Shown piece after piece: positions 6,163 to 60,647 of a stretch of 64,000 nucleotides of DNA; position 1 is the first letter of the stretch; every line of letters starts with the position of its first letter. Location of the stretch: positions 3,832,407 through 3,896,406 of the forward strand of contig CAWGEI010000003.1 of NCBI GenBank assembly GCA_963821585.1, read 5' to 3'. Made by a program: the position numbers and the translations under genes. This DNA is from an uncultured Acidobacteriota bacterium (lineage in GTDB: Bacteria > Acidobacteriota > Thermoanaerobaculia > Gp7-AA8). Below the pieces are notes generated by a model that did no database searches, had not been told where the DNA came from, and saw only the letters and a program-made list of their open reading frames with translations.

Positions 6163-6594
6163 ATGTTGCGAAGTCTGATGGTTGCGGTGCTGTTGTCGGT
6201 TTCCGTTCACGCCGCGGAGGCGGTCGATCCCGATGTGCTGGCGGTTCGCGAGGCGGCCTGGCGGGCGTGGTTCGGGGGCGATGAGGCGGCGCTACGCGCG
6301 ATGCTGCCGGAGGAGTTTCTCTCGATCGGTGCCGGCGAGGCGGAGATCTCGGATCGCGAGAAGGCGATCGCGTCGTCCCGTGAGTTCAAGGCCTCGGGGG
6401 GCCGGCTGGTGGCACTGGCGTTCCCGGAGACGCGCGCGCAGCGGTTCGGGGATACGGTCGTGCTGTACGGGAGCTACGAGGCGACGTTCGTCCGCGGGAC
6501 CGAGGAGACGCAGATGAAGGGGCGGTTGACGGAGGTGTTCGTGAAGCGCGGAGGGAAGTGGGTGCATCCGGGGTGGCACCTGGATCTGCGGTGA
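6163..6594 (+). CDS. SnoaL-like/DUF4440 (NTF2-fold) secreted protein
   Basis: AAGGAG RBS 7 nt upstream of the ATG. Signal peptide MLRSLMVAVLLSVSVHA. An NTF2-like fold is suggested by the W..W.GGDEAALRAML...KRGGKWV pattern. Confidence 0.55.
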   Translation: MLRSLMVAVLLSVSVHAAEAVDPDVLAVREAAWRAWFGGDEAALRAMLPEEFLSIGAGEAEISDREKAIASSREFKASGGRLVALAFPETRAQRFGDTVVLYGSYEATFVRGTEETQMKGRLTEVFVKRGGKWVHPGWHLDLR

Positions 6595-12863: not shown

Positions 12864-12960
12864 TAGAGTGCGGAGGCAATCTTCCGCTTTCGTATTCGGT
12901 CGCCTCGGCGCGAAAGGCAAACGAATAGGAAAGCGGAGGCGATTGCCTCCGCACTCCATA
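12864..12960. repeat. MITE-like element, family A (copy 1)
   Basis: Terminal inverted repeats gagtgcggaggcaatc...gattgcctccgcactccata, each arm carrying an internal hairpin. It lies between the sdhB stop and the ECF sigma start. Related copies are at 22827-22938 and 30581-30690. Confidence 0.7.
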
Positions 12961-16413: not shown

Positions 16414-16487
16414 CCGAGTCTTCCAGTCGCCGAGTCTTCGAGTCGACAAGGCCAAGAGGCTCGAAGACCCGACGACTCGAAGACTCG
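16414..16487. promoter_or_regulatory. direct and inverted repeats of CGAGTCTTC(C/G)AGTCG in the divergent sdhC / ABC promoter region
   Basis: ccgagtcttccagtcg, ccgagtcttcgagtcg, a partial ggctcgaagaccc, then the exact reverse complement cgactcgaagactcg. The region lies between the sdhC start (16321) and the ABC ATPase start (16558). Confidence 0.45.
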
Positions 16488-16557
16488 ACGTCCCTGACAT
16501 TCGTCATGCGCAGGTCCTGACGCCCTGCAGTGCCGCCGGAGCCCCGCCGGACGCATC

Positions 16558-19584: not shown

Positions 19585-20693
19585 AAATGAATCTACGCCT
19601 GATCCCGCACGACACCGATCTCGGATGGACTCCGTGGGCGTGGACGGTCTACATCGTCCCGTACGTGCTGTCGCCGCTGTATCTCGACCGCTATGCGAAC
19701 GCCGGCGGCTGGCTGTTCTTCGGCGGGACGACGCTCGCGTTTCTGGCGATGTACTTCCGCAGCTACTGGGTGCGCGGCCGGGAGCTCTATCTGCTGTCGG
19801 CGGCGACGGTGGCGATGGGCATCGCGCTGTGGCCGCTCACGCACTCGGCGGGCGCGTTCTTCATCTACGGTGCGGGCATGCTCGGACACATCGAGCCGAC
19901 GCGGCGGGCGATGCGGCTCGTCGCAGTGATCGCTGCGATCATCGTTGCTGAGGCGTGGTTCCTCGACCGGAGCTGGTACAACGCGATCTGGCCGTTCTTC
20001 TTCACGATCCTGGTCGGTGCGCTGAACGCGCACTTCGGACAGGTCCACCGCGCGAACGCGCGGCTGCGGCTGGCGCAGGATGAGATCGAGCATCTGGCGA
20101 AGCTCGCGGAGCGGGAGCGGATCGCGCGCGATCTGCACGACCTCCTCGGCCACACGCTGTCGCTGGTGATCCTGAAGTCGGAGCTGGCGTCGAAGCTGGC
20201 GGAGCGGGATCCGGAGCGGGCGCGCGAGGAGATCCGGGACGTGGAGCGGATCGCGCGGGAAGCGCTGGCGGAGGTGCGGTCGGCGGTAACGGGGTATCGG
20301 GCCGGCGGGTTCACGCCGGAGATTCAGCACGCGCGGAGCACGCTGGCGACGGCGGGAATCACGTTCGAAGGCGACGTGCCCGCGAACGCGCAATTGCCGC
20401 CGGCGCACGAGGCGGTGCTCTGTCTCGCGCTGCGGGAGGCGGTGACGAACATCGTCCGCCATTCGGGCGCACGGCACTGCCGGATGTCGCTGCAGGTCGC
20501 GGACGCCGCGGTGACGATGCGCATCACGGACGACGGCCGCGGCGGCGACCAGCCGTTCGGTAGCGGGCTGTCCGGCATGCGCGAGCGCATGGAAGTCCTC
20601 GGCGGCACGCTCACGCGCGACGGCCGCCGCGGCACGACGCTCACGGTGTCGCTGCCGCTGGCCGCGGCGTCAGCGCAGGAGCGCAGCGCATGA
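19581..20693 (+). CDS. DesK/NarX-type sensor histidine kinase (HisKA_3)
   Basis: Four to five N-terminal TM segments, H-box ERERIARDLHDLLGHTLS, HATPase ALREAVTNIVRHSGA...TDDGRGG...GSGLSGMRERM. Confidence 0.85.
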   Translation: MKMNLRLIPHDTDLGWTPWAWTVYIVPYVLSPLYLDRYANAGGWLFFGGTTLAFLAMYFRSYWVRGRELYLLSAATVAMGIALWPLTHSAGAFFIYGAGMLGHIEPTRRAMRLVAVIAAIIVAEAWFLDRSWYNAIWPFFFTILVGALNAHFGQVHRANARLRLAQDEIEHLAKLAERERIARDLHDLLGHTLSLVILKSELASKLAERDPERAREEIRDVERIAREALAEVRSAVTGYRAGGFTPEIQHARSTLATAGITFEGDVPANAQLPPAHEAVLCLALREAVTNIVRHSGARHCRMSLQVADAAVTMRITDDGRGGDQPFGSGLSGMRERMEVLGGTLTRDGRRGTTLTVSLPLAAASAQERSA

Positions 20694-20710
20694 GCGGAGC
20701 GCCGTATGAA

Positions 20711-20770
20711 TGTAGGGCGTGGCTTCAGCCCGCCCTCCCCGTGGGGGGCGGGCTGAAGCCACGCCCTACA
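20711..20770. repeat. palindromic stem-loop element, family B (copy 1)
   Basis: tgtagggcgtggcttcagcccgcc-ctccccgtgggg-ggcgggctgaagccacgccctaca. Intergenic between the kinase and the regulator. Confidence 0.8.
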
Positions 20771-20796
20771 TTGCAACGCTCCGCTGGAGCGCAGCC

Positions 20797-21399
20797 ATGA
20801 TCCGCGTCGTCATCGCCGAAGATCAGGCAATGGTCCTCGGCGCGCTGGCGGCGCTGCTGGAGATCGAAGGGGACTTCGAGGTCGTCGGCCGCGCGCAGGA
20901 TGGCGAGGAGGCGCTGGCGATCTGCCGGGAGAAGAAGCCGGACGTGCTGCTGACGGACATCGAGATGCCGCGGCGCACGGGGCTCGAGCTGGCGTCGGCG
21001 CTGAAGCAGGAGAAGCTGCCGACGCGGGTGATCATCCTGACGACGTTCGCGCGTGGCGGCTATCTGCGCCGCGCACTGGAAGCGGGGGCGTCGGGGTATC
21101 TGCTGAAGGACTCCCCTGCCGAGCATCTGGCGAATGCGGTGCGGCGGGTGAAGGCCGGCGGCCGTGTGGTCGATCCGGAGCTGGCCGCGGAGGCGTGGAG
21201 CGAGCCGGACCCGCTGACGGACCGCGAGCGCCAGGTGCTGCGCATGGCCGGCGAGGGCCAGACCAGCGCGGACATCGCATCGGAGCTGCACCTGTCCGAG
21301 GGAACGGTGCGGAATTACCTGTCGGAGGCGATCAGCAAGCTGGGCGCGGGCAATCGCGTGGAAGCGGCGCGGATCGCCCGCGACAAGGGGTGGCTTTAG
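20797..21399 (+). CDS. NarL/LuxR-family response regulator
   Basis: Receiver MIRVVIAEDQ...LLTDIEMP, then a LuxR helix-turn-helix LTDRERQVLRMAGEGQTSADIASELHLSEGTVRNYLSEAISKLG. GGAG RBS. Confidence 0.9.
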   Translation: MIRVVIAEDQAMVLGALAALLEIEGDFEVVGRAQDGEEALAICREKKPDVLLTDIEMPRRTGLELASALKQEKLPTRVIILTTFARGGYLRRALEAGASGYLLKDSPAEHLANAVRRVKAGGRVVDPELAAEAWSEPDPLTDRERQVLRMAGEGQTSADIASELHLSEGTVRNYLSEAISKLGAGNRVEAARIARDKGWL

Positions 21400-21405
21400 T
21401 GTCTC

Positions 21406-21507
21406 TGTCATCCCGAGCGTCGAGCGAGGGACCTGGGCGGGCGGGGCGCCACACACATGCCTCGTGCCCCGCCCACCCAGGTCCCTCGCTCGACGCTCGG
21501 GATGACA
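21406..21507. repeat. 102-bp element with near-perfect 42-bp inverted repeats (family D), a putative bidirectional terminator or MITE
   Basis: tgtcatcccgagcgtcgagcgagggacctgggcgggcggggc - 18-nt loop - gccccgcccacccaggtccctcgctcgacgctcgggatgaca. It lies between the convergent regulator and nucleotidase genes. Confidence 0.7.
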
Positions 21508-21511
21508 GGGG

Positions 21512-22804
21512 TTAACGCTTTGCGAAAGCCTCGCTGAGAACTTCTCGTACTTTCAATCCTGACTGCGTCTTGTCGCACGCGAACACCTCTTTGTAGGCGA
21601 CGTGCGCGATGTAGTCCGTCATGGCGACGCGGTACGTGCTCTGTGGATCGACGGTCAGCGCAGTGACGTATGAGTCGGAACCGGCGGCGTCGAGCGCGCG
21701 CTGGAGCTGCGCGCCGCTCATCGTGCAGGCGACGATCTCGTTGTCGTACGGCATCGCCGCGCGGAGGATCTCCATGGTCAGCGGACCGGCCGGGAGGGGC
21801 TGGCGGAAACTGCTCTTCGTGGAGAGCGCGACGTCGGCCTTCGCGGCCTCGCGCATGACGTCGATGGTGCGGCGTGCGAGCGCCTCGGTCGACAGCGGCG
21901 CGTCGAGCTTGCCGATCACGGTGAAGAGGTCGCGATACTGCCGATCGCGCTCGAGCTCGCGCTGCATGGCCGCGACGCGCTTCGTTGTCCGCGCATCCTC
22001 GGGCAGCGATCCGTCGACGGGGATCAACCCGCCGCGCACGCTCGTCACCCGTCCCTCGGCCACCGTCACTTCCACGCGGCTGATGTAGGTGAGGTACTGC
22101 GACGGGGAGATGTACGTGGTGGTCGTATCGGGGATCTGGACGAGGTCGCGCTTCAGGTGACTGTGCGAACCGAAGATGAGGTCGATGCCGGGGACTTTGC
22201 GCGCCAGCTCGTAGTCGTCCTCGACTTCCTGATGGCCGATCATCACGACGACGTTCGCCTTCTGTTCGTCGCGCAGCACGCGCACGGCTTCCTTCGCGGC
22301 GGCGACGGGATCGCTGAAGGTCAGGCCCGGAACGTTGACGAGTTTCTGGAAGTCCGCGCCTGCCAGGGCGAACACGCCGACGCGGATGCCGCGGACGTCG
22401 AACGTGGCCGTGCCCTTGAAGCCGCTCGTGTTGGCACTGAGGATCGGATAACGCACGCTCTTCCGGCAACGCTCGAACGCGTCCCACCCGTAATCGACGT
22501 CGTGATTCCCAAGCGCCATGGCGTCGACGACACCGTTGAACCAGGACCATTCCGCGCACTGAAACTTGTCCGACCACGCCGGCGCGCCCTTGTTGACCGT
22601 GTCCCCCCCACTGAACACCAGCGCCCCGCCACGCTTCTGCGCCCGTAGATACCCGATCGCCCGCGCAACCCCACCCCGCTCGCCTTCGTCCGTGTAGAAC
22701 GGGAGGGCGTGGGAGTGGTAGTCGGAGAAATGGAGCAGGGTGACGGTGGTGTCGGCGGTCAAGGGGAAGGCTGTGAGGAGAAGGAAGAGCAGCTTGCGGA
22801 ACAC
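21512..22804 (-). CDS. secreted bifunctional metallophosphatase/5'-nucleotidase (UshA-like)
   Basis: Signal peptide. Calcineurin-like motifs (HFSDYHSH, GGDTVNKG, GNHDVDYG, GHQEV, GSHSH) and a 5'-nucleotidase C-terminal domain. Confidence 0.8.
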   Translation of the reverse strand: MFRKLLFLLLTAFPLTADTTVTLLHFSDYHSHALPFYTDEGERGGVARAIGYLRAQKRGGALVFSGGDTVNKGAPAWSDKFQCAEWSWFNGVVDAMALGNHDVDYGWDAFERCRKSVRYPILSANTSGFKGTATFDVRGIRVGVFALAGADFQKLVNVPGLTFSDPVAAAKEAVRVLRDEQKANVVVMIGHQEVEDDYELARKVPGIDLIFGSHSHLKRDLVQIPDTTTTYISPSQYLTYISRVEVTVAEGRVTSVRGGLIPVDGSLPEDARTTKRVAAMQRELERDRQYRDLFTVIGKLDAPLSTEALARRTIDVMREAAKADVALSTKSSFRQPLPAGPLTMEILRAAMPYDNEIVACTMSGAQLQRALDAAGSDSYVTALTVDPQSTYRVAMTDYIAHVAYKEVFACDKTQSGLKVREVLSEAFAKR

Positions 22805-22826
22805 GCGGGGAGTCTAGCAGGCCCGA

Positions 22827-22938
22827 TATGGAGTGCGGCGGCAAGGCCGCCGCTTTCGAATTCGTGTGGCGCGAGCAACACGCGCGCGGCTGACGGCAAA
22901 CGAATACGAAAGCGGCGGCCCTGCCGCCGCACTCCATA
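22827..22938. repeat. MITE-like element, family A (copy 2)
   Basis: tatggagtgcggcggcaaggccgccgctttcgaattcg ... cgaatacgaaagcggcggccctgccgccgcactccata. It fills the gap between the GerMN gene end and the nucleotidase start. Confidence 0.75.
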
Positions 22939-25436: not shown

Positions 25437-25560
25437 AAATGAAATCCTCCTCAACGACGCACAGAGTCTTGTGCAACATTACAGCCATTGTCAACCGAAA
25501 AGGACAGGGGGCGAGCCGTTTCCGGCTCGCCCCCTGCTTTTGACGATTGAATAACGCCGA

Positions 25561-40503: not shown

Positions 40504-40562
40504 TGTAGGGCGTGGCTTCAGCCCGCCTCCCCGGGCAGGGCGGGCTGAAGCCACGCCCTACG
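40504..40562. repeat. palindromic stem-loop element, family B (copy 2)
   Basis: tgtagggcgtggcttcagcccgcc-tccccgggcagg-gcgggctgaagccacgccctacg, immediately after the kinase stop. Confidence 0.8.
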
Positions 40563-49161: not shown

Positions 49162-49274
49162 CTGGCAGCCGAAAGAGTTGCGCGCCCCCTCGCGACCCGG
49201 CGGCCGTTCCGCAGGGCCACCGGCCCGCAGGGTGCCGGCGGAACGGCCGGCTGGAAGCCGGCACTACAAACAAA

Positions 49275-49350
49275 CGTAGGGCGTGGCTTCAGCCCGCCCG
49301 CCCCGCCCGAGGGGCGGGCTGAAGCCGAGGGCTGAAGCCGCGCCCTACGT
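49275..49350. repeat. palindromic stem-loop element, family B (copy 3, with an internal 12-bp duplication)
   Basis: acgtagggcgtggcttcagcccgcc-cgccccgcccgagg-ggcgggctgaagccgagggctgaagccgcgccctacgt. Confidence 0.8.
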
Positions 49351-54285: not shown

Positions 54286-55065
54286 ATGCTTCCATTCGAG
54301 TCGCAGGTTGTGGAGATCTATGAGGATCTTCACCGGATTGCCCCCGGCGCGCTCGACCAGTTCCAGAGCCTGCCGTCCGCGAATCAGTATCGCAGGCTCT
54401 ACGAGCTGACCGCCGCTCATGTCCCGTCCGGACCGGGGGTGTCCGTGCTGGACTGGGGATGCGGCCGCGGGCATTTCACCTACTACCTCCTGCGCCGCGG
54501 ATACCGCGTGACGGCGTATTCGCTCGAGGACGCTCCGGAGCTGTTCGCGCGATTGCCGGCCGAGGAGCGGGAGCGGCTCACGTTTGTGCGCGGCGGCGAT
54601 CCCGCGGGCTTGCCGTTCGCGGACGGGAGCTTCGACGCCGTGTTCAGCGTGGGCGTGCTGGAGCACGTGCGCGAGCTGGGCGGCACGGAGCTGGAGAGCC
54701 TGATCGAGATCCGGCGCGTCCTGCGTCCGGACGGTCTCGTGCTCGTCTATCACCTCCCCAACCGGTTCAGTTCCATCGAGGCGCTGACCCGGATGATCTA
54801 CCGGCGGCACGACCCGCGGGAGGGATTCCGGTTTCACCAGTACCGCTTCACGGCCGCCGAGATCTCGCGGCTCACGGAGGCCGCGGGGCTTCGCCTGCGC
54901 GCGATCGGCCGGTACGGGTTTCTCCCGCGGAACTCGCTGAGCCGCCTTCCCGCATTCGCACGGGAGAGCCGGCGCGTCGCGTCGTGGATCAACGTCGCCG
55001 ACCTGGTGCTCGAGCGCGCGTTCTCGCCCGTCACCCAGAACTACTTTTTCGTCGCGGCCCGCTGA
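54286..55065 (+). CDS. class I SAM-dependent methyltransferase
   Basis: SAM motif I VLDWGCGRGHF, post-I acidic residue and motif IV FDAVFSVGVLEH. Confidence 0.8.
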   Translation: MLPFESQVVEIYEDLHRIAPGALDQFQSLPSANQYRRLYELTAAHVPSGPGVSVLDWGCGRGHFTYYLLRRGYRVTAYSLEDAPELFARLPAEERERLTFVRGGDPAGLPFADGSFDAVFSVGVLEHVRELGGTELESLIEIRRVLRPDGLVLVYHLPNRFSSIEALTRMIYRRHDPREGFRFHQYRFTAAEISRLTEAAGLRLRAIGRYGFLPRNSLSRLPAFARESRRVASWINVADLVLERAFSPVTQNYFFVAAR

Positions 55066-56516
55066 AATGGCGCGAGCTTGATCTCGAAGTAGTGGCGGCG
55101 GGCGATGTTCCAGAGATTGCCGCGCTCGCGGCGGAACATCCTGCCGGTCTCGGGCGTCGTCGTGACCTCCGCCAGCAGCCAGGCGTCTTTCGCGTCGTCC
55201 GGAGGCAGGGCGCGATCGTCGGGGACGTGGGTGTATCGCACGCCGGGAGCCTCGAGATCGAGAAAGACCAGCATCGTCTGGTCGACGAAGAGTTGTTTGC
55301 CCTCGCGCTGCACGAGCTCGGCCGCCGCCCGCGCGGCCAGTATGGACGGCGCGACCTCGTTGCGCACCGCCGTCAGCGCGGGGAAGGTGTAGACGAAAAA
55401 CGCCGCGACCATGGCCGCGGAGAGCATCCATTCGCGTTTCTTCGCCACGCGCGCGATGCCGTCGGCGAGAAAGAGCGCGAACATCGGCTGGTAGCCGATC
55501 GAGAAACGGCTGATGCTGTAGCGGTCGAGCATGAGCCAGGCGAAGACCGCGAACGGGGCAAAGGTCATCGCGTTCCAGAATAGCGAACGGTTGCGCTCGC
55601 GGAAGGCGCCGGCGATGGAGACGGCGACAAAGATCGAGGCGATGAAGCTGAGGACCGGCGCCTGGTACTGCTTGACGAAGAAGCGGTCGGCGATGCGCCA
55701 GAGCGGCGGACGGTCTTCGCTGCGGAAGGAGTCGACGCGGGCGATGTACTCGCCGTGCTTGCGGACCATGTGCTGGTACTCGTCCAGCGAGCCGGTCGCG
55801 TAGATCGCGCCGCCGAAGGCGGCACCGACGACCACGACGCCGATCAGCAACGCGACGAGGACCTCCCACCAGCGCCGCCGGCGCGTGGCGAGGAATCCGG
55901 GGACGAGTCCGATGAGGAGGTTCTGCGGACGGATGCCGATCGCCAGGGCGAGGAGCAGGGTGCCGAGCCAGTAGGCATATGTGGGAAACGTAGGGCGTGG
56001 CTTCAGCCCGCCCGCCCCCGGGGGAGGCGGGCTGAAGCCACGCCCTACGTTTCGCGCGCTTTTCAGCAGGAACGTGACCGCGAAGAGGACGAGGACGATC
56101 GACGGGATGTCGCTGAACGCGCCACCGCCGAAGAACCAGACGTTCGGGAAGAACGCGAAGAGCGCCGCGGCGGAGACGCAGGTCGCGAAGCGCAGGCGGA
56201 GCTCGCGGGCGAAGACGAAGACCGCCACGAACACGAGCATCGCGGCGATCACGTTGATGGTCTGCAGCGCGCGGAAGTCGTCGGGGACGACGAAGCGCAC
56301 CAGGCGCGCCAGGGCGATGAACACGGGGAAGCCCGGCGGATGCGGATGGTGCATGCGCACGTCGTAGTCGCGCATGGCCATCGTGAAGAGGGCTTCGTCC
56401 CACTCCCAGACGGTGCGGGCCACGGCCAGGAAGCGCGTCCCGGCACAGACGAGCGCGACGATCAGGAAGATCGTCCGCTGGCGCGGCGTGAGAGGCTCGG
56501 GTGGGCTGCTGAACAC
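55041..56516 (-). CDS. GT39/ArnT-PMT-like membrane glycosyltransferase carrying an apparent in-frame family-B element insertion
   Basis: Polytopic (about 11 TM segments) PMT_2-like protein. Codons for NVGRGFSPPPPGAGGLKPRPTF (55988-56050) are the family-B palindrome, translated in-frame within a loop. Confidence 0.65.
   Translation of the reverse strand: MFSSPPEPLTPRQRTIFLIVALVCAGTRFLAVARTVWEWDEALFTMAMRDYDVRMHHPHPPGFPVFIALARLVRFVVPDDFRALQTINVIAAMLVFVAVFVFARELRLRFATCVSAAALFAFFPNVWFFGGGAFSDIPSIVLVLFAVTFLLKSARNVGRGFSPPPPGAGGLKPRPTFPTYAYWLGTLLLALAIGIRPQNLLIGLVPGFLATRRRRWWEVLVALLIGVVVVGAAFGGAIYATGSLDEYQHMVRKHGEYIARVDSFRSEDRPPLWRIADRFFVKQYQAPVLSFIASIFVAVSIAGAFRERNRSLFWNAMTFAPFAVFAWLMLDRYSISRFSIGYQPMFALFLADGIARVAKKREWMLSAAMVAAFFVYTFPALTAVRNEVAPSILAARAAAELVQREGKQLFVDQTMLVFLDLEAPGVRYTHVPDDRALPPDDAKDAWLLAEVTTTPETGRMFRRERGNLWNIARRHYFEIKLAPFQRAATKK
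55988..56050. repeat. palindromic stem-loop element, family B (copy 4), located inside a coding sequence
   Basis: acgtagggcgtggcttcagcccgcc-cgcccccgggggag-gcgggctgaagccacgccctacgt. 63 bp equals 21 codons with no stop in the gene frame. Confidence 0.8.
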
Positions 56517-60530: not shown

Positions 60531-60638
60531 AGGGTTGGCGGTTCGTAGTTGACAGTTGGCAGTTGACAGTTGACAGGAGGCCGCCGCCCGCCCGCGAGGG
60601 CGGCCTCTCCTGTCAACTGCCAACTATCAACTGCCAAC
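60531..60638. promoter_or_regulatory. long palindrome built from tandem heptads GTTGACA/GTTGGCA around a GC stem (terminator of the ABC operon and/or operator in the fadD promoter)
   Basis: gttggcg gttcgta gttgaca gttggca gttgaca gttgaca GGAGGCCGCC -13 nt- GGCGGCCTCTCC tgtcaac tgccaac tatcaac tgccaac. It lies between the permease stop (60648) and the fadD start (60472). A TATGAT -10-like box lies downstream on the minus strand. Confidence 0.5.
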
Positions 60639-60647
60639 CGCCCCCGG

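Follow-up and report, generated by a model that had tools for sequence, protein, structure and literature searches.

An in-frame palindrome in a glycosyltransferase gene

How does a long palindrome come to lie inside a membrane-protein gene that nevertheless stays open, and what does its presence say about the repeat from which it derives? The question is raised by a 64-kb stretch of DNA from an uncultured Acidobacteriota bacterium (the window, that is, the whole stretch analysed), in which a GC-rich palindromic element lies within the gene of a membrane glycosyltransferase. The element is very probably a REPIN-like dimer of a GTAG-headed repetitive extragenic palindromic (REP) sequence that was recently inserted in-frame into this gene, as a tolerated by-product of REP mobility and not as an adaptation. 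The gene and the insert are located as follows.

55041-56516, reverse strand: host gene, encoding a membrane glycosyltransferase of the glycosyltransferase C (GT-C) fold, 491 aa, assigned by predicted structure and orthologue alignment
55983-56048, reverse strand: net insertion of 66 nt (22 codons), reading VGRGFSPPPPGAGGLKPRPTFP, V157-P178, from DNA and protein alignments to P0003/L001 and seven other orthologues
55985-56053, no strand assigned: full palindrome of the intragenic copy (copy 4) with its GAAAC/GTTTC flanks, 69 nt, with 34-nt arms that are 94% complementary

Judged by sequence comparison, this is a net insertion into one real gene. The nearest empty allele, P0003, is 95% identical and reads CTGAAAGGCGCGCGCAAT and CGCAACGCCTACTGG on the two sides of the site, where the window is longer by 66 nt in a clean insertion. 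More widely, in 103 of the 120 orthologues a stretch of 15 residues, LLxGxR[DN]RNAYWLGT, runs on uninterrupted across the insertion position, which is the exact gap that an orthologue alignment, proposed as a check in the initial annotation of this DNA, was meant to find. The element translates within the host open reading frame (ORF) as ...KSARNVGRGFSPPPPGAGGLKPRPTFPTYAYW... and introduces no stop, the 491-aa frame remaining open through it as originally stated. The length originally given as exactly 21 codons has to be replaced by 22 on comparison with the closest empty orthologue, and the original coordinates of 55988-56050 lie one base out of codon register. The three codons that follow the insert are ACATATGCC (Thr-Tyr-Ala) in the window and in P0002, and CGCAACGCC (Arg-Asn-Ala) in P0003. 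The insertion took place recently, with insert arms identical to the family consensus and an empty allele at a synonymous divergence (dS) of 0.15. The insert is presumably translated, and a peptide such as GFSPPPPGAGGLKPRPTFPTYAYWLGTLLLALAIGIR would mark the translated region 55983-56048.

The host gene and its product

The host is one intact gene under purifying selection. Its protein has 1255 database homologues, the named relatives being metagenome-assembled genomes (MAGs) of Thermoanaerobaculia (Acidobacteriota), and its orthologues align with it at full length across the insertion site. The orthologue loci share the order AMP-binding enzyme, FadB-like gene, glycosyltransferase, methyltransferase (at most loci) and the NAD-glutamate dehydrogenase gene gdh. 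GC content at the first, second and third codon positions (GC1/2/3) is 0.66/0.46/0.91, and the pattern GC1 > GC2 < GC3 persists in an unchanged frame across the two flanks of the element, with GC3 at 0.91-0.96. The ratio of non-synonymous to synonymous divergence (dN/dS) is 0.17 against P0003 (dS 0.154) and 0.18-0.21 against more distant alleles.

The protein is classified by predicted structure because Pfam found no family in it, even when the insert was removed by hand. The AlphaFold2 model, built on a 120-sequence alignment, is a single confident GT-C fold (predicted local distance difference test, pLDDT, 89.9; predicted template modelling score, pTM, 0.91). A Foldseek search of the PDB returned GT-C enzymes only (ALG12, ArnT, AglB, ALG9, Pmt4, AftB, and DPY19), with E-values of 3e-7 to 5e-4 and template modelling scores (TM-scores) of 0.46-0.56 for ALG12, ArnT, AglB, ALG9, and Pmt4. 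The acidic motif WDEALF follows the first transmembrane helix (TM1), and D40, E41, and A42 are invariant in a 20-sequence alignment. The traits expected of a GT-C enzyme are all present, the membrane fold being multi-spanning, the first extracytoplasmic loop carrying an acidic motif, and the structure resembling those of ArnT, PMT, and ALG proteins. In the orthologues, Pfam PMT_2 scores 25.4 bits against a cut-off of 26.1 over residues 59-212, a region that spans the insertion site. The first description of the host as GT39/PMT-like is therefore right at the level of the fold but is not borne out by Pfam, in which PMT_2 is sub-threshold in orthologues and absent from the window protein.

In the model, helix 136-157 is joined to helix 178-195 by the insert, which takes the form of a coil, and mean pLDDT drops to 82, 73, and 67 in the successive 10-residue blocks from 151 to 180. 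The number of helices counted from the WDEALF motif onward, together with the Lys/Arg content, would place this loop in the cytoplasm.

Two further features of the gene concern its end. The window protein and its nearest relatives, P0002, P0003, P0004, and P0012, end in ...LAPFQRAATKK and are without the C-terminal domain of about 95 residues found in most of the 585-aa orthologues. The end of the gene also overlaps a convergent methyltransferase gene (54286-55065) by 25 nt (55041-55065).

Architecture of the element and its family

The 20-nt arm of the element, GGGCGTGGCTTCAGCCCGCC, has eight matches in the window, arranged as four inverted pairs, against an average of 0.03 in shuffled sequences, and the four family copies first reported are thus all recovered. 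The copies can be aligned over about 60 nt and share the ends AAY-GTAGGGCG...CGCCCTAC-RTT, while the short central spacer varies. The positions of stop and start codons around copies 1-3 agree with their having been called intergenic from the outset.

20712-20769, no strand assigned: copy 1 core, 58 nt, intergenic, between a histidine kinase stop (20691-20693) and a response regulator ATG (20797-20799)
40505-40561, no strand assigned: copy 2 core, 57 nt, intergenic, with its onset 1 nt past the stop codon 40501-40503
49276-49348, no strand assigned: copy 3 core, 73 nt, intergenic, 13 nt past the gdh stop
55990-56048, no strand assigned: copy 4 core, 59 nt, intragenic, both arms matching the family arm with 0 mismatches

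A single arm consists of a GTAG head and a 7-bp bulged stem (GGCG-T-GGC / GCC-CGCC) closed by a 4-nt TTCA loop, and folds at -6.6 kcal/mol; since its z is just -1.7, support for a REP at this level comes from the architecture and not from the statistic. Di Nocera et al. (2013; PMC3733652) give a REP unit as an imperfect palindrome with a stem of 5-13 bp and a loop of 2-20 nt, and the window arm has these dimensions. All eight window arms carry the GTAG head, and a few arms in related loci are degenerate (GCAG, GTCG, or GCCG). Two such units, inverted, with the GTAG ends outermost and 12-13 nt apart, make up the whole element, and the inverted pairing is seen in all four window copies and in 34 dimers from related loci. 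The two units of copy 4 span 55990-56012 and 56026-56048, leaving a spacer of 13 nt, and both point their GTAG heads outward. Folding of the complete element gives -39 kcal/mol for DNA and -70 kcal/mol for RNA (z about -10 to -11), the coding-strand RNA of copy 4 forming a hairpin of -70 kcal/mol (z = -9.9) that none of 200 shuffles equals in stability. The element had been described as a perfect stem-loop of about 63 bp; a stem-loop it is, but not a perfect one, the 34-nt arms being 94% complementary around a core of 59 nt, with perfect pairing in an outer stem of about 29 bp. Placement is also that of a REP, three of the four window copies being intergenic and two of them no more than 13 nt from a stop codon. 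This architecture makes the element REPIN-like, a pair of GTAG-headed REP units in inverted orientation.

The family was scanned for in one genome per species with the pattern GTAGGGCGYGGCTTCAGCC. The arm turned up, for the most part in inverted pairs, on many contigs belonging to at least four Thermoanaerobaculia MAGs, and among the matches listed there are scattered ones in other phyla. The 59-nt core of copy 4 looks identical to that of L023:2254, from another MAG, as judged from the outermost 8 bases of either arm and from the spacer. No consistent direct repeat flanks the 34 dimers, copy 1 alone having a flanking duplication of 15-16 nt, and no insertion sequence (IS) with matching ends came to light, in a search that did not extend to whole genomes. 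Rfam gave nothing at threshold for copy 4, with generic hairpins only below it (miRNA precursors and mraW), and a simple terminator scan did not call this intragenic copy. When compared with Rickettsia palindromic elements (RPEs) by description, the family falls outside them in sequence, having GTAG/CTAC ends and not CGTC, a length of 59-66 nt, and a GC-rich composition.

A transposase of the kind associated with REPs was encountered in one of the fetched loci. Among the fetched loci searched for a REP-associated tyrosine transposase (RAYT) by motif regular expression and tblastn, L054 alone has one, in a REPtron at L054:6118-6628 from an uncultured Acidobacteriota, where a 128-aa, N-terminally short, RAYT-like Y1_Tnp ORF (6190-6576) is flanked by two different inverted GTAG REPs. 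The ORF scores 35 bits against a cut-off of 23 for Pfam Y1_Tnp (PF01797), and its homologues are named REP-associated tyrosine transposase by JGI. The REPs are GTAGGGCGGCGTTTTAACGCCGCC on one side and the reverse complement of GTAGGGCGCGGCTTCAGCCGCGCC on the right-hand side, the latter matching the scan pattern. A protein search with the L054 RAYT did not place the contig of the window among the best 120.

The intergenic copies have some peculiarities of their own. Copy 3 owes its 73 nt to a surplus partial arm (GGGCGGGCTGAAGCC and then GAGGGCTGAAGCCGCGCCCTAC), and an unrelated inverted repeat at 49196-49254 adjoins it. Copy 1 is flanked by a 15-16-nt direct repeat of the junction between kinase stop and regulator start (GGAGCGCAGCGCATGA at 20678-20693 and GGAGCGCAGCCATGA at 20786-20800) and also lies inside an outer inverted repeat (GCGGAGCG at 20694-20701 and CGCTCCGC at 20777-20784). 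It looks as if an overlapping ATGA stop/start had been split at this site by the insertion and then duplicated.

Copies inside genes of related genomes

All copies in the fetched loci were tested because one intragenic copy out of four, in the window alone, would be an anecdote. A copy was counted as intragenic when an open frame ran over the element and 240 nt on each side and the coding GC pattern was present on both flanks. By this count, coding sequence holds 13 in-frame copies out of 62 testable ones in the window and related loci together, distributed by source as 1/4 in the window, 10/23 in SMAG_U1737, 0/9 in SMAG_U3271, 1/4 in SMAG_U4223, 0/2 in SMAG_U12094, and 1/20 elsewhere. The initial annotation had suggested a genome-wide tabulation of intergenic and in-frame copies; the tabulation made here covers the window and the fetched related loci, and for these it bears out the behaviour proposed for the family. 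The counts support the view that the family enters coding sequence in-frame in related genomes.

The encoded peptides recur from gene to gene, as VGRGFSPP...GGLKPRPT or, from the other open frames, CRARLQPAP... and ...GRAEATPY, while the third frame of each arm contains a stop, either the TAG of GTAG or the TGA in GCTGAAGCC. In several of the genes, Pfam domains lie astride the element, for example, ADH_N and ADH_zinc_N in one gene and GDE_N_bis and a glycoside hydrolase domain in another. Similarly, the Glyco_transf_4 and Glycos_transf_1 domains of a GT4 gene lie astride a single REP. Other element-bearing genes with Pfam domains encode AcrB, gamma-glutamyltranspeptidase (GGT), YfhO, a MenD-like protein, and a methyltransferase. 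The alignment of the L022 quinone oxidoreductase with PDB 4dup falls into two blocks, separated precisely at the element by about 27 residues that 4dup lacks. Core lengths of 58, 59, 60, 85, 95, and 97 nt occur, and length modulo 3 does not set the intragenic copies apart. An in-frame status built into the length of the element can be ruled out, as the intragenic cores are not multiples of three, and in-frame status accordingly reflects which insertions survive.

Single arms also occur alone in related loci. In an AcrB-family gene of SMAG_U1737 (L071:6811-6923), one left arm is accompanied by three tandem right arms, read as VGRGFSPPLPGAGGLKPRPTSGGLKPRPTSGGLKPRPTS; this array is a local amplification of the REP unit inside coding sequence. 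Two protein-level searches are uninformative on frequency, the queries being short and compositionally biased: a 44-aa artificial REP-peptide query found one 67-aa ORF, and when 1.84 billion representatives were scanned with a 30-aa HMMER query, four short ORFs came up, scoring 35-38 bits.

Repeated occupation of one codon boundary

Of the other 119 orthologues, nine have unrelated sequence of 7-30 aa at the codon boundary where the window insert lies. With the REP dimer of the window labelled T1, the other insert types are as follows.

P0002, P0008, and P0009: T2, a 90-nt GC-rich palindrome, GGCGCGCCGGCTGCCAGCCGG...CCGGCCAGCGGCCGGCGCGCC, with a 27-nt single unit of it in P0013
P0004, P0016, and P0028: T3, a 24-nt insert
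P0018: T4, a 66-nt palindrome of CCAACCG repeats

Of these three, T2 and T4 are dispersed repeats, with exact arm matches of 25-28 nt at unrelated loci of other MAGs (L030, L066, and L047). The initial annotation had named an unrelated loop in element-free orthologues as the finding that would speak against an insertion, and the nine orthologues formally touch this point, but the rest of the family has no such sequence. The nine strengthen the insertion reading because at least two of the three types are dispersed palindromic repeats that the rest of the family is without.

Neighbour-joining groups the window (T1) closely with P0002 (T2) and P0003 (empty), as a trio, and puts T2 and T3 each at three separate points of the tree, beside empty alleles. 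The three T2 copies begin at an identical position in the gene and differ from one another at 3-4 of 90 positions, and their flanks (240 nt of coding sequence on each side) differ by 15-17% (binomial P = 6e-5 to 1e-3). The copies are too alike, against this flank divergence, for T2 to be one old, vertically inherited insertion; the pattern fits either repeated recent insertion or concerted evolution with other copies. In addition, the sister alleles P0008 (L003) and P0013 (L004:3001-4779) hold, at the same site, the full 90-nt T2 dimer and the 27-nt single unit, respectively, through either dimer-to-monomer deletion or monomer-to-dimer growth.

A second loop of the protein, after residue 357, contains an in-frame palindrome of about 88 nt with a 15-bp perfect stem (GAGCGACAGGCGCCC) in P0049 (L102:1532-1619), and permissive loops are therefore part of the explanation. 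Inserts of 31-36 aa are found in P0045 and P0097 in the equivalent of this loop. A target preference may add to loop permissiveness. Beyond the AAY/RTT ends, the flanks of T1 dimers show a mutual complementarity of 3.97 of 10 positions against 2.55 +/- 0.26, a value reached by none of 2000 permutations, and some T1 copies sit centrally in copy-specific palindromes of 14-17 bp.

A bolder reading can be held only tentatively, namely that the boundary after Asn/Asp156 is a true integration hotspot and more than a permissive loop, and that in at least some Thermoanaerobaculia, REP dimers colonise coding sequence at an RPE-like frequency. Its terms are four inserts from at least three palindromic families, entering independently and in some cases repeatedly, and about 40% of the sampled copies of one MAG inside genes. 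Under this reading, the elements might target the loop or the centre of small DNA hairpins.

Origin of the insertion and alternative explanations

According to the explanation preferred here, the REP dimer would have entered after Asn156, in a short Arg/Lys-rich loop between helices 136-157 and 178-195, and would be read through as a 22-residue Gly/Pro/Arg-rich coil. With a net length of 66 nt and a stop-free frame through the palindrome, the gene stays open. The insertion would have survived by being in-frame, by lying in a permissive loop, and by keeping the positive charge of that loop, and REP insertion may prefer the centres of small hairpins or palindromes as targets. The mobilising enzyme is probably a RAYT-type Y1 transposase acting on single-stranded hairpins.

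Several points weigh against this account. The ends of the insertion and any target-site duplication cannot be defined to the base; the right flanks differ. No RAYT gene was found in the 64-kb window by motif regular expression or tblastn, and since the window lacks such a gene, mobilisation by a RAYT is for this genome proposed by analogy. A small hairpin is possible at the reconstructed empty site, and insertion would fall at the 3' edge of the hairpin loop, but this hairpin is not significantly more stable than shuffles (z = -0.6 to -2.1), and because it is so weak, hairpin targeting is put forward as a hypothesis. Gene calls in the related loci come from the test of GC by codon position and from Pfam, and not from curated annotation. 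Finally, the protein could be impaired though its ORF is intact, and the -70 kcal/mol mRNA hairpin might lower expression.

The last of these points leads to an alternative in which the insertion inactivated or crippled the glycosyltransferase, the ORF being open by chance of frame and the event too recent for decay to be visible. The arms identical to the family consensus do make the insertion young, it falls within the region of residues 59-212 that matches PMT_2 in the orthologues, the mRNA hairpin is very stable, and a between-genome dN/dS is blind to very recent relaxation of selection. Loss of function is nonetheless unlikely, since nine other orthologues carry 7-30 extra residues in the loop in intact genes, one of their insert types having itself diverged in sequence, and whole-gene dN/dS is 0.17-0.21 in pairs with insert-bearing alleles. 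Furthermore, the insert is modelled as a coil that leaves the fold undisturbed, and at least ten other genes in a related MAG carry the element and stay open.

Somewhat less probable still is that the element is a miniature inverted-repeat transposable element (MITE), that is, an IS deletion derivative moved by a DDE transposase through its terminal inverted repeats and not by the REP/RAYT route. Its length of 59-66 nt is under the usual MITE size, the dimers have no consistent target-site duplication, each arm bears the GTAG head and small hairpin typical of REPs, single arms exist alone, and a related GTAG REP flanks the Y1 transposase gene of L054. What a MITE would share with the element is its dispersal as an inverted repeat with conserved AAY/RTT ends, and the lack of a demonstrated RAYT in the window genome would be expected of one.

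Repeated occupation could also be explained if the intragenic copy had been co-opted, its mRNA hairpin or protein loop serving a regulatory or structural role. Four insert types from different lineages do meet at one codon boundary, three inserts of 22-30 residues are Gly/Pro-rich, and the window and T2 inserts add positive charge to a basic loop. Against this, 103 of 120 orthologues lack an insert altogether, those inserts that do occur have no sequence relationship to one another and vary in length between 7 and 30 aa, and the same element lies in unrelated enzymes; tolerance combined with target preference is simpler, and co-option is improbable to a marked degree. The least credible idea, that the element separates two genes or that the long ORF is a chance open frame, draws on the many spurious long ORFs of high-GC windows and can be dismissed, the two-gene alternative raised at the outset having been checked and refuted by end-to-end orthologue alignment, a single GT-C model, same-frame coding GC (GC3 continuity) on both sides, and conserved gene order.

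Relation to known repeats and significance

REPs are named as extragenic, and their movement and target choice are poorly understood. RPEs, the Rickettsia palindromic elements reportedly described by Ogata and colleagues in 2000 and 2002 as RPE-1 to RPE-8, were the comparison first drawn for the window element. They exceed the window element in length (about 100-150 bp for RPE-1), have an AT-rich composition, and are known only from Rickettsia. The comparison holds for in-frame entry into genes (13 of 62 copies), but the closest kind of element is a GTAG REP dimer (REPIN) and not a Rickettsia RPE. The likeness is one of behaviour only, both entering many unrelated protein genes without loss of frame and being read through as additional peptides at the surface or in loops; the window element is GTAG-tagged, GC-rich, and short, and there is no evidence of common descent. 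MITEs measure 70-300 bp and have IS-derived terminal inverted repeats and target-site duplications. The window element resembles those found in ORFs (Nezha in cyanobacteria, ERIC/IRU in enterobacteria, and Correia/NEMIS in Neisseria) in being small, non-autonomous, and built of inverted repeats, with the frame kept in some copies, but it is smaller, and in a comparison short of whole genomes no IS-derived termini and no consistent target-site duplication were seen.

The closest match lies with GTAG-tagged REPs and their inverted dimers (REPINs), which are associated with RAYTs (Bertels and Rainey, 2011, PMC3116915; Di Nocera et al., 2013, PMC3733652). The window family shares with them the GTAG head, a short bulged stem-loop, inverted pairs that can fold into a long hairpin, and dispersal, and its window copies, like those REPs, lie mostly just downstream of stop codons. 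According to Di Nocera et al. (2013; PMC3733652), GTAG and CGTC REPs lie inside genes of several species, and more than half of the intragenic inserts are dimers or groups that encode 20-30 aa. The same report gives Opitutus terrae as the species with the most intragenic GTAG copies, records different REPs at about the same site in recB of two Xanthomonas species as well as REP dimers inserted within small palindromes in other species, and counts Rickettsia RPE-4 and RPE-6 among CGTC-tagged REPs (PMC3733652). An intragenic GTAG REP dimer is, on that account, a kind of event already described (PMC3733652).

The window family departs from reported GTAG REPs in its host, from the Thermoanaerobaculia (Acidobacteriota), which does not figure among the species named in the passages of PMC3733652 consulted; the acidobacterium K. 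versatilis is mentioned there for terminal inverted repeat (TIR) elements only. It also differs in a very short spacer of 12-13 nt, in an unusually high intragenic share in one related MAG (10/23), and in the four insert types at one codon boundary. The literature searched yielded no Thermoanaerobaculia host, no such intragenic share in one MAG, and no allelic series of four inserts at one codon boundary. Taken alone, the insertion would not surprise specialists; what stands out is the hotspot, together with how often the family lies in coding sequence.

The locus provides a clean, dated case of a REP dimer read through inside an essential-looking fold. It also provides a natural allelic series at one position, holding nothing, half an element, or one of four insert sequences, which could help to infer the target rules of palindromic insertions and to test the tolerance of membrane proteins for new loops. 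If the hotspot and colonisation reading is true, a free-living, GC-rich lineage would be a second natural system in which palindromes create protein loops. For annotation, a genuine protein can drop out of reach of Pfam through a REP insertion, and the peptide VGRGFSPP...GGLKPRPT marks element-derived segments in Thermoanaerobaculia proteins.

Other palindromes in the window

Other long palindrome families occur in the window, all intergenic, at 21405-21508, 22827-22938, 60537-60642, 16415-16490, 12883-12937, and 25491-25550. Two of these families bracket the gene at 21512-22813. The palindromes around this gene, and that at 16415-16490, were considered as intragenic candidates and ruled out by their intergenic positions. 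The palindrome at 60537-60642 is made of heptamer repeats, in the same style as the T4 insert of the orthologue P0018.

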